The translations under genes and the position numbers were made by a program. DNA of 64,000 nt from Patescibacteria group bacterium (GTDB taxonomy: Bacteria > Patescibacteriota > Microgenomatia > JAMCZE01): contig JAMCZE010000010.1 in the NCBI GenBank assembly GCA_023485845.1, forward strand, positions 89,448-153,447, given 5' to 3'. The notes under the pieces were generated by a model. That model worked only from the letters and a program-made list of their open reading frames with translations, ran no database searches and was not told the origin of the DNA. Shown in pieces: positions 50,370 to 57,880 of the stretch (positions are counted from its first letter, which is position 1; each line of letters opens with the position of its first letter).

Positions 50370-50918
50370 ATGTATTCCATTGTTAAAGCGCCAAGCGAGA
50401 TTTTGCGAACGCCGGTCGGACCGGCGGATTTGCCCGCGGCCAAGTTGGCCAAGATCATCGCCGAGATGAAAGCGACCTTGATCGCCCAGAAAGACCCGGA
50501 GGGGGTGGGCCTGTCTGCTAACCAAGTGGGGCTCCCCTACCTGCTCTTTCTCGCCCGGTTTGATACTAAACCAAACTCGCCGATTCATGTTTTCATTAAC
50601 CCGGAAATCGTCAGCCATTCCGAGGAACTTCAGGAGGAAAATGAAGACAAGTCCCCCCTGGAGGGCTGCCTGTCACTGCCGAAATATTATGGTTTTGTCA
50701 AACGCTGGAAGACCGTGGAGCTGCGATATCAGGATGAAAATTGTAAATTGAAAACTGAAAATTTTCGTGGCTTTCCCGCCGTGGTGATCCAACACGAAAT
50801 GGACCACCTGGAGGGCAAGATTTTTGTGGAGCGGATTCTGGAACAGTCCGGAAAACTCTATAAAGTGGCCGGAAAAAATAAAAAAGGCAAAGACACCTGG
50901 GAAGAGGTGGAAATCTAA
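50370..50918 (+). CDS. def: Peptide deformylase
   Basis: GVGLSANQVG, EGCLSLP, HEMDHLEG motifs. Start at the MYSIVKAP ATG. Confidence 0.85.
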   Translation: MYSIVKAPSEILRTPVGPADLPAAKLAKIIAEMKATLIAQKDPEGVGLSANQVGLPYLLFLARFDTKPNSPIHVFINPEIVSHSEELQEENEDKSPLEGCLSLPKYYGFVKRWKTVELRYQDENCKLKTENFRGFPAVVIQHEMDHLEGKIFVERILEQSGKLYKVAGKNKKGKDTWEEVEI

Positions 50919-52459
50919 TCTTTATCTTGACTATGTTTACTGCCAATAAGTTTTTCCTTTTTCCCAGCTTCCAAATAGTCCGCATATAATTCATCTTGAT
51001 AGCTGCCCACTCGTTCCCAATCAACCACTCCCAAATGGGCTGACACCTCACCAACACTTTTAGCAATTGCCTTTAAAATATGTTCCGTTAAAACTCCGCT
51101 TTCTGCGGCCCGCCGATAACCATAATAGTCCGTCCCGATTACCAAAAAACGACGGCCGTCAGGGTTCTCTTCAATTGCACTTTCACGGCGCTTGCCCAAT
51201 TGCTCTCGTTTTATCCCGGCAAAAACACTGTTCCCTAAACGCTCTCTTTTCCCCACCGCCTGCTCCGGCGCATGACTTGTGGGCACATTGGGCCGTGTCA
51301 CCTGGGTCCGTCCGTGACTCTCGTTTATCCTGTTGCCTTCTCCATGACTCCGCTCTGGCCGAGCAGTTCCCATCGTCATGTCGCCTTGACCCAATGCAAC
51401 AATCCGCATAATTTTTTCGGCGATCAGGAAAGCTTGCTTCTCCTTGCCTCCAATTCGCACTGAGTGGTGCTCCGCCAAGATTAAAGCCACTCTAGATCCG
51501 AGAATTTCGTGCATTTTGGCAGAAATCTCCCCCCATTCTGTACTCTCCTCAACCTCGTTCTTACCCAATGCCAAGCCCAATGTCGAGGATTCGATATCCA
51601 CTTCCCCGAAAAGCGTTCCCATCCCCGGAACACTCTCAGCAGTGGGATGACCAGCCATCCATGCTTCTTGAATCAAACGTCCAAACATTGACACGGCCAG
51701 CCCCGGCCGCAATTCCCGTGGCAAGGATTTACTCTCGGGCAGTTGATCAATCCAGAAGCGGACTCTTGTCGCCGCCCCCACCTGAAATTCACCTTCGTCA
51801 CACTCTTTGCCATAAGGACGTGGTAGTGCTTCCACATCCTTCCCATTAAGATTAACGATAATTTTCTTTTCCAAGATTGCCCTGCTATAGACCTTTCCTA
51901 TATGGTTGCGCAGTCGATTCGGATCTAATGAAGCACGAAGTTTGTTAATCTCCAGATGGGTGAACCCTGGACCTGGTCGCGTCTTTACCCGTTCATACGG
52001 GTGCCGACGGAACTGCTCCCGCGGGCCACCAATGTCAAATGTCACTTTAATCTCTTCTGTCTCCCCCCGGCCAGCACAAATCATCCTTGCCCCACCACCA
52101 GCGAGATATTCCACTGCAGCCTTGCCGCCATAGCCATTTCGGCCCAGCGATCCGCCATAATTGACCGTCTCGCGAAAACCGCTGGCTTTATCAGAAGAAC
52201 CCCATTTGCTCCACCGTTGGAGTCGCTCAAAATTCATGCCCACACCACCACTATCCTCGTAAATAAACCTTCCATCTTTATCAATGGTTAAATTCACCAC
52301 TAGCGGCCCAGTGCCGCGTGAGTCATAGGAGTTATCTAGAAGCTCATCAATTGCCGCCTCTGGACGCGGAAATGTGGCTAACCGATCCAGCAACCGGGGT
52401 TCAACACTCTCCTCTAAATATTGTGGTCCGGTATCAGGTTTATTCGACACGTTTATCAA
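50915..52459 (-). CDS. GHKL-superfamily (HATPase_c / MORC-MutL-like Bergerat-fold) ATPase with about 350-aa uncharacterised C-terminal region
   Basis: N-box IDELLDNSYDS, G1 box YEDSGGVGM, G2 box GRNGYGGKAA. No HisKA, no MutL C-terminal dimerisation domain. Confidence 0.6.
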   Translation of the reverse strand: MINVSNKPDTGPQYLEESVEPRLLDRLATFPRPEAAIDELLDNSYDSRGTGPLVVNLTIDKDGRFIYEDSGGVGMNFERLQRWSKWGSSDKASGFRETVNYGGSLGRNGYGGKAAVEYLAGGGARMICAGRGETEEIKVTFDIGGPREQFRRHPYERVKTRPGPGFTHLEINKLRASLDPNRLRNHIGKVYSRAILEKKIIVNLNGKDVEALPRPYGKECDEGEFQVGAATRVRFWIDQLPESKSLPRELRPGLAVSMFGRLIQEAWMAGHPTAESVPGMGTLFGEVDIESSTLGLALGKNEVEESTEWGEISAKMHEILGSRVALILAEHHSVRIGGKEKQAFLIAEKIMRIVALGQGDMTMGTARPERSHGEGNRINESHGRTQVTRPNVPTSHAPEQAVGKRERLGNSVFAGIKREQLGKRRESAIEENPDGRRFLVIGTDYYGYRRAAESGVLTEHILKAIAKSVGEVSAHLGVVDWERVGSYQDELYADYLEAGKKEKLIGSKHSQDKD

Positions 52460-53801
52460 TTAATAGATTAGTGTCTCCCAAAAAGCGTGCTACCGGATGG
52501 CAAATGGCATCGATTAACTGTCGCCTCTTTTCCAGGCCAAGTGGCATTGCCGCCCGCAGCACCTCGGCAACGATATAACTGTAATACTCGTTCCCGTGGT
52601 GAGCATAGCGTTCATCCCGAACTTTGTTCAGGCTTTTGGCGGCAATCAATGACCGCAGTTTACGCTCGATTGAGTCACAGGCCTCTTTCGGATCAAGGGC
52701 AGCAACTTCCCCGCTGGAAACTTGGTTATTATACTCATCCCAAGCCCGCTGACACTCGGTCAGAAGCGCTGAATCAAATTCCACCGCTAATTTCTTCGCT
52801 TTCCCATTCTCTTTTGGTAACAACAATAATTTGTTAGCTAACACTGCCTCCTCTTGTTTGGTAAACGGATCCACTAATTGCCAGGGCTGCTCACCCTCTG
52901 ATTTGGGTTTTCGCGAGAATAACCGCTCCACAATTCCTTTCACAGTTGACTGCCGCAATTTTGCTCCTTTGGTCTCCCGACGAATAAGCTGCAGACGATT
53001 TAGTCCGGAACCGGTAACGACAATTTGTTTTCTGGCACCACCGCGCACTTCCGCGTAATCAATCCCCACCCGCAATGCCCCCCAATTAATATAGTTCTTC
53101 ACCGTCGATGGGGACAAATTAGCTTTGGCAGCAGTCTCCTGCAGCGAAAGCTCCAATGCCGGCTTGCCTCCGGCACTTTGCAAGGCTGTTTTATCAGGAA
53201 GCAGGCTATAACCACCCGAGCGGCTGCTAACTAGCACCGTTTGATGATCAGGATCTGGGTTAACCTTATTTCGAAGGCGCATAAGTGTGTTGTAGAAATT
53301 ACCCAATTCCCGTTCCGAAGGCTTCCGCCCTTTAGTAATTTCCTGAAGTAGGTCTTTTGCCAGAACAAATCTTCCCTGGTGCGCTTTTAGCACCTGCATC
53401 GCTTCCGCTTCTTTAGAACCAGTCAGTTTGATTTTAGTGGCACCAATTATAAAGACTCGCGATTCGGGGTCAACACGAACATCCACTAATTGGCCAGCCA
53501 CCTCTTCGGCTGGTTTTGGTGTGTTTGCTGTCGGCGCTTTTTCTGGCAAAAAAGTCACCTGGAGTTCACCCGATTCCGGGTCACGCAGTCCCCGCGCTGA
53601 CAGCTTTTGTAGAATATCAGAAAGACCCTCCTCAATAATTCTGGCTGTTTCTTCTGTGGCCGCGACCCGGGCTGTGAACGGACGAACTAATTCTGACCCG
53701 ACTCCAAATTTATTTCCGAGCCGTTTCTCTTCGGCTCGCAAATCGACAGCGTTTAGTCGCAAAGCACCAATTATTGGTTTTAGTGATCGTTCAACAGCCA
53801 T
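52440..53801 (-). CDS. Hypothetical 453-aa protein with HTH-like segment, co-operonic with the GHKL ATPase
   Basis: 20-nt overlap with the downstream ATPase gene. ETAAKANLSPSTVKNYINWGALRV looks like a helix-turn-helix. Basic, no other motif. Confidence 0.5.
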   Translation of the reverse strand: MAVERSLKPIIGALRLNAVDLRAEEKRLGNKFGVGSELVRPFTARVAATEETARIIEEGLSDILQKLSARGLRDPESGELQVTFLPEKAPTANTPKPAEEVAGQLVDVRVDPESRVFIIGATKIKLTGSKEAEAMQVLKAHQGRFVLAKDLLQEITKGRKPSERELGNFYNTLMRLRNKVNPDPDHQTVLVSSRSGGYSLLPDKTALQSAGGKPALELSLQETAAKANLSPSTVKNYINWGALRVGIDYAEVRGGARKQIVVTGSGLNRLQLIRRETKGAKLRQSTVKGIVERLFSRKPKSEGEQPWQLVDPFTKQEEAVLANKLLLLPKENGKAKKLAVEFDSALLTECQRAWDEYNNQVSSGEVAALDPKEACDSIERKLRSLIAAKSLNKVRDERYAHHGNEYYSYIVAEVLRAAMPLGLEKRRQLIDAICHPVARFLGDTNLLIDKRVE

Positions 53802-53865
53802 GAGTTATCTTATAACATTTAAACCTCACCTTGTCAATAAGTTTTAGCCGTGGCAAAATTATACT

Positions 53866-54624
53866 ATGACCGTTATCTTTTTTGGTTCATCAGATTATTG
53901 CCTGCCGGTTCTGGAAGCACTGAAGAATTATTTTGACTTAGAGTTAGTTGTCACCCGGGAAGATAAACCGGTGGGGAGAAAGCAAATTGTAACGGCGTCG
54001 CCGACAAAAACTTGGGCAATAAAAAATAATATCCGCGCTGGTGAAGAATTAGACATTGATTGTGATTTAGCCATTGTTGCCGATTACGGGAAAATTATTC
54101 CCGAGGAAATTTTTACTCGGCCGCGGCTGGGAACGTTTAACATTCACTTTTCTAGACTGCCCGACCTGCGCGGGGCATCGCCCGTCCAGGCCACCCTTCT
54201 TCGCGGGGACACAACTGCCTGGATCACCATCTTTAAGTTAGAAAAAACCCTGGACACCGGGCCGATTCTCTGGCAAAAAGAATATCCTATCGCGCCGGAT
54301 GATACTGCCGGCACTCTTTACACCCGATTGTTTCAAGAAGTGGCTAGGGAGTTACCAAAAATCGATTTTTTCGGCCCGCTGACACCCCAATCCAGCCCAC
54401 CAACCTATTGCAAAACACTCACCCGCAATGATGGATTCATAAAATATGAGGACCTAACTAATCAGCAAAATTACAATAAATATCGCGCTTATTTTCCCTG
54501 GCCAGGAGTTTGGTCTATCAAGAATGGCAAAAGAATGAAAATTCTTAAGTGCCACTTGGAGGATAATAAACTCATTCTCGATCTTATTCAGTTTGAGGGG
54601 AAGAAGCCGACCCTTTATCACTGA
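53866..54624 (+). CDS. fmt: Methionyl-tRNA formyltransferase (short form)
   Basis: NIHFSRLPDLRGASPVQATLL formyltransferase core and C-terminal Fmt-specific domain. Confidence 0.85.
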   Translation: MTVIFFGSSDYCLPVLEALKNYFDLELVVTREDKPVGRKQIVTASPTKTWAIKNNIRAGEELDIDCDLAIVADYGKIIPEEIFTRPRLGTFNIHFSRLPDLRGASPVQATLLRGDTTAWITIFKLEKTLDTGPILWQKEYPIAPDDTAGTLYTRLFQEVARELPKIDFFGPLTPQSSPPTYCKTLTRNDGFIKYEDLTNQQNYNKYRAYFPWPGVWSIKNGKRMKILKCHLEDNKLILDLIQFEGKKPTLYH

Positions 54625-55102: not shown

Positions 55103-55504
55103 GTGAATATACAAATACCCACAGGTAAAAATACTAAGATTATTGAAAAGGATTTGAGTTACAAAATTGTTGGACTGCTTTATGAAGTGCACACTAAACT
55201 TGGGGGAAGATATCAGGAAAAAATCTATCAAAAGGCAGTTGAAAAGGTTCTTCAGCGGGAAAAAATTAATTACCAAAGGGAACTTCCGGTTGATCTGATT
55301 TTTGAAGGTGCTAAAATAGGCAAGTATTATTTAGACTTTTTGATCGAGGAGCGAGTTATTTTGGAACTTAAAGCAGTTTACCGTTTCCATCCAGAACACT
55401 TTCGCCAGGTTCAGTCGTATTTAAAAACAAATAACATTAAGCTTGGCATCCTGGCTAACTTTAAAGGCCCAAAGTTAATCTACGCCCGAATTCTAAATTC
55501 GTAG
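55103..55504 (+). CDS. GxxExxY-family protein (PD-(D/E)xK-like)
   Basis: YKIVGLLYEVHTKLGGRYQEKIYQKAV...DFLIEERVILELKA matches the family consensus. Confidence 0.7.
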   Translation: MNIQIPTGKNTKIIEKDLSYKIVGLLYEVHTKLGGRYQEKIYQKAVEKVLQREKINYQRELPVDLIFEGAKIGKYYLDFLIEERVILELKAVYRFHPEHFRQVQSYLKTNNIKLGILANFKGPKLIYARILNS

Positions 55505-57089: not shown

Positions 57090-57641
57090 ATGAAGCGTGG
57101 ATTCTCGTCCGTTATTGCCGTTGCCCTGGTGGCCGCTTTGGGCGTTGCCTCATTGTTGTTTATTTTTCTGGTGGCTCGGTCCGGCCCGGGCACCACCCAG
57201 TCCCAAGCCACCCCCATTGTCACCGACACTTTGCCGCCGGTGGCGCCGATCACCCAAGCCACTCCTGCCGCCCAACCAATCGCCCCGACTCCGATCCCCG
57301 TTGCCTCAGTGGCCGCCGGTCCCAGTGTCACCAATAACAACATTGCCACCGTCACTAATCTCACGCCCGACGCTTTCACCGTCCAAACCATGCTTTCCAC
57401 CGACCGGACAACGTTTGTGATTGATTTTTCTTCCCAGGATTGGTCCGGCATCAGCACCATCACCTACACGCTATCTTACGACACGACCAGCGCCGCTTCC
57501 GGACGGGTTATCTCCGGCACCTTCACCCCATCATCGGTTTTGTCTAACCGCAAGACTTTAACTCTGGGAACCTGCTCACAAGGAGTTTGCACCTATGACA
57601 TCTATCCTCACAATTTCCGCCTCACCGTGTCCGGAAGTTAA
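57090..57641 (+). CDS. Membrane-anchored Pro/Thr/Ala-rich secreted hypothetical protein
   Basis: N-terminal TM, low-complexity linker, C-terminal domain with two Cys. Confidence 0.5.
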   Translation: MKRGFSSVIAVALVAALGVASLLFIFLVARSGPGTTQSQATPIVTDTLPPVAPITQATPAAQPIAPTPIPVASVAAGPSVTNNNIATVTNLTPDAFTVQTMLSTDRTTFVIDFSSQDWSGISTITYTLSYDTTSAASGRVISGTFTPSSVLSNRKTLTLGTCSQGVCTYDIYPHNFRLTVSGS

Positions 57642-57880
57642 ATCCCAATTAAATGCCTATTTCGAAAAGCAAATCCGGACCCAGACTTGAGATATTTTTC
57701 AAAAGCCAGTGCTTTATGCTTGGATTTAAAAGCGGTATAACCAATCAGTTCGCAAGGTAAAAATCTCTTAGTCGTAGCATCCTGACCGGTTTGGTGTTCA
57801 TGGTATCTTCTTTTGAGATCTTCAGTAAAGCCAACATAAGTTTCTTTGTTGGTGAGACTTAGAAGATAAACGTAATACAT
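57638..57880 (-). CDS. GIY-YIG nuclease-family protein (UPF0213-like, 80 aa)
   Basis: YYVYLLSLTNKETYVGFTEDLKRRYHEH... GIY-YIG core. GAAGGAGGG Shine-Dalgarno. Confidence 0.8.
   Translation of the reverse strand: MYYVYLLSLTNKETYVGFTEDLKRRYHEHQTGQDATTKRFLPCELIGYTAFKSKHKALAFEKYLKSGSGFAFRNRHLIGI

Follow-up and report, generated by a model that had tools for sequence, protein, structure and literature searches.

To our knowledge, prokaryotic MORC ATPases are known from comparative genomics only, as accessories of restriction-type systems that also contain helicases and nucleases, and we know of no established mode of action for the MORC module in bacteria. The 64,000-nucleotide (nt) stretch of DNA analysed here, which we call the window (contig JAMCZE010000010.1, positions 89,448–153,447, of the metagenome-assembled genome of a Patescibacteria group bacterium), carries between def and fmt a two-gene operon composed of a predicted multi-helix-turn-helix (multi-HTH) protein, referred to as the partner, and a MORC-family GHKL ATPase. 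Iyer, Abhiman & Aravind (2008, Biol Direct 3:8; PMC2292703) tie prokaryotic MORCs to restriction–modification (R-M) systems and use an S5-domain motif, GhXhhpXXRhl, to tell MORCs from paraMORCs. Two further described systems are close enough to require comparison. The anti-phage system Tiamat (TmtA; Millman et al. 2022; PADLOC models PDLC03964–03972) is reportedly a single-gene system containing a PD-(D/E)XK nuclease (bioRxiv 10.1101/2024.10.26.620412), and a Response_reg_2 + HEF_HK paraMORC pair has been described as ‘two-component-like’ (Bellieny-Rabelo et al. 2021; PMC8011034).

The window ATPase shares with the prokaryotic MORC family (PMC2292703) the GHKL motifs, an S5 domain with a basic residue and the GhXhhpXXRhl motif, and its relatives show the same sporadic distribution, signs of lateral transfer and distant members in R-M and defence islands. 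In described prokaryotic MORC operons the ATPase is accompanied by superfamily II (SF-II) helicases, nucleases and DNA methylases, whereas here the sole partner is a multi-HTH protein; the module also differs in lying amid Patescibacteria housekeeping genes and in having an ATPase with its own family-specific C-terminal domain. SF-II helicase, nuclease and DNA methylase neighbours, which are typical of MORCs without defining them, are absent from the locus, where only the HTH partner, def and fmt adjoin. The ATPase family is the known one, the prokaryotic MORCs; what is new is the pairing with a multi-HTH adaptor, the lack of an enzymatic partner, the family-specific C-terminal domain and the occurrence of this variant in Patescibacteria-like genomes only. 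PADLOC and a literature search yielded no description of any of the four, in agreement with an earlier note on this DNA that had proposed the module as a candidate for an undescribed defence or epigenetic module.

To assemble the ATPase family, 1.84 billion representatives were searched exhaustively with HMMER, both window proteins joined end to end serving as the query. Of 124 matches, about 110 are ATPase-family clusters at 50% identity, many of them nearly full-length and the best 36% identical, which amounts to a sparse distribution in a collection of this size. These relatives, and partner homologues that occupy the same position elsewhere, indicate that both open reading frames (ORFs) are real genes and not chance ORFs. 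In a 40-sequence alignment of the family (A1), residues A36, D42, N43, W86, G111, K113, Y191, G253, R261 and K300 are invariant. The nucleotide-binding motifs of the GHKL domain (E39/N43, D69xGxxG74, G106..G111-G112-K113 and G165) are intact, being invariant or nearly so in A1, and the N-box, G1 and G2 motifs quoted in the earlier note are all present (ELLDNSYDS at 39–47, DSGGVGM at 69–75 and GRNGYGGKAA at 106–115).

A search with HATPase_c_3 (PF13589), which the earlier note had proposed, gives a match just under the gathering threshold (GA) in the window ATPase (E = 1.9e-4; 21.9 bits versus a GA of 25) and matches in 39 of the 40 family members; Morc6_S5 is found in 2 of the 40. Taken alone, the window ATPase reaches a PDB sequence of MORC3 only marginally (E = 0.28). 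The A1 profile matches MORC4 (E = 6e-18), MORC3 and MORC2, and then SMCHD1, over two stretches that correspond to GHKL and S5. The S5 stretch of the alignment to MORC4 and MORC3 takes in the lysine of the NK(T/Q)DF motif, which is K300 of the window ATPase. An S5-fold domain thus follows the GHKL domain and supplies a conserved basic residue, as expected of a MORC. The MORC-specific motif has the family consensus G-I-R-C-Y-x-x-G-R-L-I and reads G253-L-A-V-S-M-F-G-R261-L-I in the window ATPase, where S257 and M258 depart from the h and p classes and G253 and R261 are the invariant positions. With GHKL domain, S5 domain and MORC motif in place, the protein is by sequence criteria a true member of the MORC family, and its motifs predict an intact catalytic site. 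The ‘MORC-like GHKL ATPase’ of the earlier note was therefore a correct call that can be strengthened, and the claim that the C-terminal 350 residues match nothing is superseded by the recognizable S5 transducer located there.

Beyond the transducer, an AlphaFold2 (AF2) model built on A1 (predicted local distance difference test, pLDDT, 87.3; predicted template modelling score, pTM, 0.70) contains a helical hairpin, a linker and a C-terminal domain (Table 1). The linker runs into a conserved motif, PxTPAPxxAVGxRxRL (APEQAVGKRERL at residues 397–408 of the window ATPase), whose last residues lie inside the C-terminal domain; R407 is nearly invariant in A1, and the Gly and Arg of the motif are invariant in the C-terminal-domain alignment. 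This compact domain is likely to serve in constitutive dimerization or another interaction, and is possibly a degenerate zincin-like fold; its profile returned only noise against PDB sequences. No nuclease family was found for the window proteins in Pfam or NCBIfam. Compared with eukaryotic MORC2, MORC3, MORC4 and SMCHD1, to which its identity is ∼16–18%, the window ATPase has no CW zinc finger, chromo-like domain or SMC hinge, and DNA recognition in the window module apparently comes from a separate protein.

That separate protein, the partner, is basic (isoelectric point, pI, 9.4), and, in line with the HTH-like segment reported for it in the earlier note, it shows two HTH-type elements, a likely OmpR-type winged HTH (wHTH) and a weaker HTH_17-like one. 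The wHTH matches Trans_reg_C in Pfam (PF00486; E = 3.2e-4; 21.2 bits, under the GA of 26.2), MtrA (E = 2e-4) and VicR (E = 1.5e-3) in the PDB, and RpaB (E = 4e-5) and the MtrA output domain in NCBIfam. The partner homologue at locus L013 aligns in register with the window partner and exceeds the Trans_reg_C threshold, at 34.8 bits. For the second element, Pfam HTH_17 (PF12728) gives E = 0.017 and 15.8 bits against a GA of 27, Sigma70_r4_2 gives E = 0.09, and PHROG excisionase and transcription-regulator families match weakly; the helix–helix–hairpin pattern predicted by AF2 is compatible with HTH_17, and the segment is duplicated in the partner relatives P0058 and P0061. Judged by these matches, the partner carries at least one DNA-binding domain and probably two. 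It contains no detectable receiver domain, and PADLOC, NCBIfam and PHROG searches with both window proteins were informative for the wHTH only.

The AF2 model of the partner was made from a 4-sequence alignment (pLDDT 54) and was used for secondary structure only: two long N-terminal helices, a wHTH pattern, a second winged HTH and an all-α C-terminal domain (C-domain). Only three relatives of the C-terminal half were recovered by the HMMER search (P0033, P0058 and P0061), all with the same architecture. The C-domain has no match in Pfam or the PDB but is conserved across partner subtypes according to hhalign. Because ATPase and partner similarities co-vary, we infer that it is a candidate ATPase-interaction domain.

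Six sampled loci from the closest ATPase clade (L009, L011, L012, L013–L015, L016–L018 and L019) all have a gene directly upstream of the ATPase, with spacings in these Patescibacteria-like loci that range from a 4-nt overlap to a 12-nt gap. In L009 the gene 4 nt upstream of P0003, the closest relative of the window ATPase, is P0058, and in L011, P0061 precedes by 3 nt a 512-residue ATPase that is 32% identical to that of the window; for each of the ATPases P0004, P0005, P0006 and P0009 a gene encoding 372–577 residues is tightly coupled upstream. The upstream gene is a demonstrated partner homologue at five of the six loci (L009, L011, L012, L013 and L019), the proteins of L012, L013 and L019 being homologous to window-type partners; at the sixth, the L017 protein aligns to the partner with an hhalign probability of 38%. 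BLASTP places the N-terminal region and wHTH of the window and L013 partners in register (26% identity over 140 residues, E = 1e-8), and hhalign joins the HTH and C-domain of the two partner subtypes (probability 96.6%, E = 4.8e-10). In a neighbourhood analysis of the kind suggested by the earlier note, homologues of the partner are thus found upstream of MORC ATPases elsewhere.

Pairwise similarities of ATPase and partner co-vary (Spearman 0.54; the pairs are not independent, so that the p-value is indicative only), and the closest pairs are the same for both genes, L009–L011 and L012–L019. Gene order and similarity together argue that partner and ATPase form an obligate, translationally coupled pair. 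Word-indexed homology searches with either protein recovered no sequence but the query itself, a profile of the joined proteins added one new homologue (P0125), and two scans of metagenomes and one of viral contigs gave no matches. Coordinates of the genes and predicted domains are collected in Table 1.

Table 1. Genes, predicted domains and candidate promoter of the def–fmt interval, in window coordinates
Feature	Position	Strand	Basis or remark
def	50370–50918	+	Pfam E = 8e-39; stop overlaps ATPase stop by 4 nt, convergent
MORC-family GHKL ATPase gene, 514 residues, TTG start	50915–52459	−	ORF list and homologues
ATPase residues 401–505, family-specific α/β C-terminal domain (4 strands, 3 helices, compact)	50945–51259	−	
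ATPase residues 358–400, low-confidence Pro/Arg-rich linker	51260–51388	−	pLDDT <50 at residues 382–388
ATPase residues 307–357, long antiparallel helical hairpin	51389–51541	−	AF2 helices 307–333 and 338–357
ATPase residues 201–305, S5-fold transducer with motif G253-x7-R261-L-I and invariant K300	51545–51859	−	MORC4/MORC3 alignment, A1 columns
ATPase residues 15–200, Bergerat-fold GHKL ATP-binding domain	51860–52417	−	Invariant columns, HATPase_c_3, profile versus MORC4/3/2, pLDDT above 90
Partner gene, 453 residues, first gene of operon	52440–53801	−	ORF list and homologues upstream of MORC ATPases
Partner residues 300–453, family-specific all-α C-domain	52443–52904	−	Invariant W307..V310, QEEAxLAxK 316–324
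Partner residues 216–262, second MerR/excisionase-type (HTH_17-like) winged HTH	53016–53156	−	Weak evidence
Partner residues 104–203, OmpR/PhoB-type winged-helix DNA-binding domain	53193–53492	−	Pfam, PDB, NCBIfam
Partner residues 1–69, two long helices, predicted coiled-coil hairpin	53595–53801	−	AF2 secondary structure
Candidate sigma-70-type promoter of operon: TTGACA (53837–53832), 17 nt, TATAAG (53814–53809)	53809–53837	−	Consensus match only
fmt	53866–54624	+	Pfam E = 2e-26; start 64 nt from partner start

We regard the operon as one functional unit, a DNA-binding adaptor plus a MORC GHKL/S5 ATPase. Eukaryotic MORCs are known to clamp and compact DNA. By analogy, the partner would act as the adaptor and recognize particular DNA, and its C-domain would recruit or load the MORC dimer, which the ATPase's own C-terminal domain probably holds together. 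ATP binding would then dimerize the GHKL heads and close the clamp around the DNA, as in the eukaryotic proteins, and the closed clamp would compact or silence the DNA without cutting it. We favour, with moderate confidence, a conflict role for such an adaptor-guided clamp. The module would then represent a form of the prokaryotic MORC conflict systems that is specific to Patescibacteria and lacks a nuclease, with invading phage or plasmid DNA as its most likely target.

The history of the site bears on this reading. The ORFs, their coordinates and the 20-nt overlap of partner and ATPase genes given in the earlier note agree with the ORF list; NCBI annotates a 511-residue ATPase, for which the overlap is 11 nt. 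The two minus-strand genes fill the ∼2.9 kb between def and fmt, and the same contig is present in an independent assembly (L001). Loci L013, L014 and L015 share synteny with the window; the order is mreB, wzy, …, def, two glycosyltransferase genes, ATPase (−), partner (−), a sigma-70 gene and fmt. In these loci (L013 1235–7051; also L014 and L015) the sigma-70 gene encodes 332 residues and lies directly upstream of the partner gene, and the two glycosyltransferases are of the GT2 type. Since the L013-type interval also holds these genes, the def–fmt gap appears to be a generally variable slot in this lineage. Elsewhere the module is found before secE, among secDF/ftsEX/prfB, or next to rseP-frr-tsf. 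A genome scan with fmt gave one distant locus. In a Minisyncoccia genome, a single case, priA, def and fmt are adjacent and the module is missing.

Between the window and L013, def (63% identity), fmt (61%), MreB (68%) and Wzy (49%) are far better conserved than the ATPase (29%) or the partner, which is alignable over 140 residues only. The L011 genome is more distant (38–45% for housekeeping proteins), yet its module is closer, with an ATPase at 32% and a clearly homologous partner C-domain. The low ATPase identity against flanks at 61–68% in L013, together with the closer module in the more distant L011, suggests that the module either diverges several-fold faster than its neighbours or has been exchanged as variants at a shared slot, either pattern being typical of conflict systems. 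The description of the module as ‘inserted’ is misleading: the locus shows no sign of mobility, a homologous pair at the same def–fmt site in a related genome argues against a recent insertion, and the module looks instead like a variable cassette at a conserved site. A universally conserved housekeeping pair at def–fmt, which the earlier note had named as the finding that would speak against its proposal, is matched by L013 only in position; the divergence at this syntenic site, the other positions elsewhere and the Minisyncoccia def–fmt without the module argue against universality.

Distant family members supply the defence signals. The gene for P0017 (L022) is flanked by those for a type I HsdR, a PD-(D/E)XK protein and an N6/N4 methylase; the next gene overlaps it and encodes a trypsin-like protease, a possible MORC–protease pair. 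The protease has 395 residues, and the same defence island (L022 1–13503) also contains an FGE-sulfatase-like gene. P0012, on a contig of 69% GC, occurs without a partner between a PIN toxin–antitoxin pair and AbiEi_4. P0011 (L021 1203–3916) starts 24 nt after the gene for a 396-residue DndB-domain protein; this DNA-binding partner takes the same upstream position but differs from the window partner, to which it is unrelated by hhalign. P0125 (L003 6875–10261; also L004–L008) has a Dam methylase gene nearby, together with a long series of small ORFs that lack annotation, and may belong to a prophage or to another type of module; its flanking genes are an unannotated upstream gene of 330 residues and an overlapping downstream gene of 255 residues.

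Several observations weigh against a conflict role. Neither window protein has a PADLOC or DefenseFinder-type match, and no effector (nuclease, helicase, methylase or TIR) was found in either protein or adjoining them. All Patescibacteria-type copies lie amid housekeeping genes (def, fmt, secE, secDF, rseP, frr, tsf) and not in defence islands. No integrase, transposase or other mobility gene was found at the module, its GC content (0.50, versus 0.48 for the window) shows no anomaly, and tblastn of the ATPase against phage and plasmid collections found no match. The retention of the pair at the same def–fmt site in a relative would also fit a lineage-specific cellular role, and the model of the partner is poor. 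The defence role proposed in the earlier note thus gains from the R-M, toxin–antitoxin/Abi and DndB contexts of distant relatives, loses from the lack of an identifiable effector, and can be stated only conditionally.

Some of these same observations speak for an endogenous chromatin or transcription module, in which the partner, as a sequence-specific regulator, would bring the MORC clamp to loci of the cell itself for silencing, nucleoid organization or H-NS-like xenogeneic silencing. The module would then have a lineage-specific role in the cell and be no anti-phage system. Housekeeping genes surround every Patescibacteria-type locus, the pair is retained at one def–fmt position in a relative, and the locus has neither effector nor mobility gene; in addition, the L013 module directly follows a sigma-70 gene, and output domains of the OmpR type are usually found in transcription factors. 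Eukaryotic MORCs silence after recruitment by DNA-binding factors, which would be a ready parallel. We nevertheless consider such a role rather improbable, given the sparse distribution and the absence of the pair from def–fmt of the Minisyncoccia genome, the extreme divergence relative to flanking genes with a module phylogeny incongruent with genome relatedness, and the defence, toxin–antitoxin and R-M contexts of distant family members.

An unlikely alternative is that the ATPase acts alone, as a Tiamat-like single-gene defence protein, with the upstream gene as its transcriptional regulator in the manner of BrxR or CapW. HTH regulators often precede defence operons, some distant relatives have no such partner (L020), and a candidate promoter directly precedes the partner gene. 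Tiamat itself has a GHKL-type ATPase, and 5 of the 40 family members weakly match TmtA (best E = 5.5e-7); the TmtA models do not match the window ATPase even at E ≤ 1, and the window module differs from Tiamat in having a conserved partner gene and no detected PD-(D/E)XK domain. The large size of the partner (372–580 residues) and its several domains, one of them a conserved non-DNA-binding C-domain, point away from this arrangement, as do translational coupling at every locus, the co-variation of partner and ATPase similarities, and an ATPase with no recognizable effector domain of its own.

The ATPase could in principle be a divergent housekeeping GHKL protein that replaces MutL or HtpG/Hsp90 in a reduced genome, next to an unrelated regulator. 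Its layout of GHKL domain, middle domain, linker and C-terminal domain mirrors both proteins, and Foldseek ranks TRAP1/Hsp90 first for the AF2 model (E = 1e-17), with the PDB entry ‘MORC2 PD mutant with DNA’ among the matches; a fold search of BFVD gave generic GHKL folds only (topo II and rIIA). The A1 profile favours MORCs, with no MutL match at E ≤ 1 and marginal matches to HtpG (0.57) and endoplasmin (0.02). Closest similarity to the MutL N-terminal domain and a MutL C-terminal dimerization/endonuclease domain are both lacking, as is the sequence similarity expected across the N-terminal, large middle and C-terminal domains of Hsp90/HtpG. We therefore hold the replacement to be very improbable.

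The paraMORC pair (PMC8011034) resembles the module in having two genes, an HATPase_c_3 ATPase and a protein similar to part of a response regulator, and differs in that the window partner has an output and not a receiver-like domain, the window ATPase is a MORC proper, and no R-M system is linked. PF19191 and PF19192 were detected neither in the window proteins nor in the 40 ATPase relatives or the partner relatives, which excludes this element. A degenerate two-component-like pair of histidine-kinase-like ATPase and OmpR-family regulator, suggested by a GHKL ATPase adjoining a Trans_reg_C protein and by the published paraMORC precedent, is already contradicted and the least credible explanation of all, since the ATPase has no HisKA/DHp phospho-acceptor and the DNA-binding protein no receiver.

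The 64-nt spacer between partner and fmt (53802–53865) contains overlapping divergent promoter-like elements. The TATAAG of the candidate operon promoter stops 7 nt ahead of the partner ATG, and no Shine–Dalgarno sequence is present; this short gap and the lack of a ribosome-binding sequence suggest a leaderless or very short-leadered mRNA. On the plus strand, a −35-like box of fmt, TTGTCA, shares bases with the minus-strand TTGACA, and a TATACT abuts the fmt ATG. A 14-nt direct repeat with 13 of 14 bases alike lies near both ends of the block, at 50941–50954 (TGCCAATAAGTTTT) and 53832–53845 (TGTCAATAAGTTTT). We rejected it as an attachment (att) site or target-site duplication: about two such pairs are expected in 4.8 kb by our estimate and its right copy coincides with the −35 region of the divergent promoters, so that the repeat is probably due to chance; the syntenic L013 locus also speaks against a recent insertion that it could mark. 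A few kilobases downstream of the module, small ORFs of the PD-(D/E)XK_3 and GIY-YIG families (Pfam labels; window 55103–55504 and 57638–57880) lie near tRNA-Thr and tRNA-Tyr genes.

A more far-reaching form of the preferred reading, the adaptor-guided clamp in a conflict role, is possible and offered only tentatively. It is that the module is a nuclease-free, adaptor-guided MORC system in which the multi-HTH protein directs an ATP-driven clamp to silence foreign or chosen host DNA, as a bacterial counterpart of, and possible evolutionary precedent for, the eukaryotic MORC silencing that is guided by transcription factors. Its setting would be the reduced genomes of Patescibacteria, where the C-domain of the adaptor would co-evolve with the ATPase, both as exchangeable cassettes at a fixed slot.

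The locus represents a minimal version of the MORC arrangement, with one DNA-binding adaptor and one MORC ATPase, free of nucleases and recurrent in a bacterial radiation that has been little studied. Should the adaptor load the clamp onto selected DNA, this pair would offer a simple system in which to study MORC targeting and the effects of clamping on DNA. Cassettes so divergent at a single syntenic site are also a natural case for comparing cassette exchange with rapid divergence in streamlined genomes. If the proposal is true, a silencing-type mechanism, unlike cleavage, would join the short list of defence and genome-control systems of Patescibacteria.

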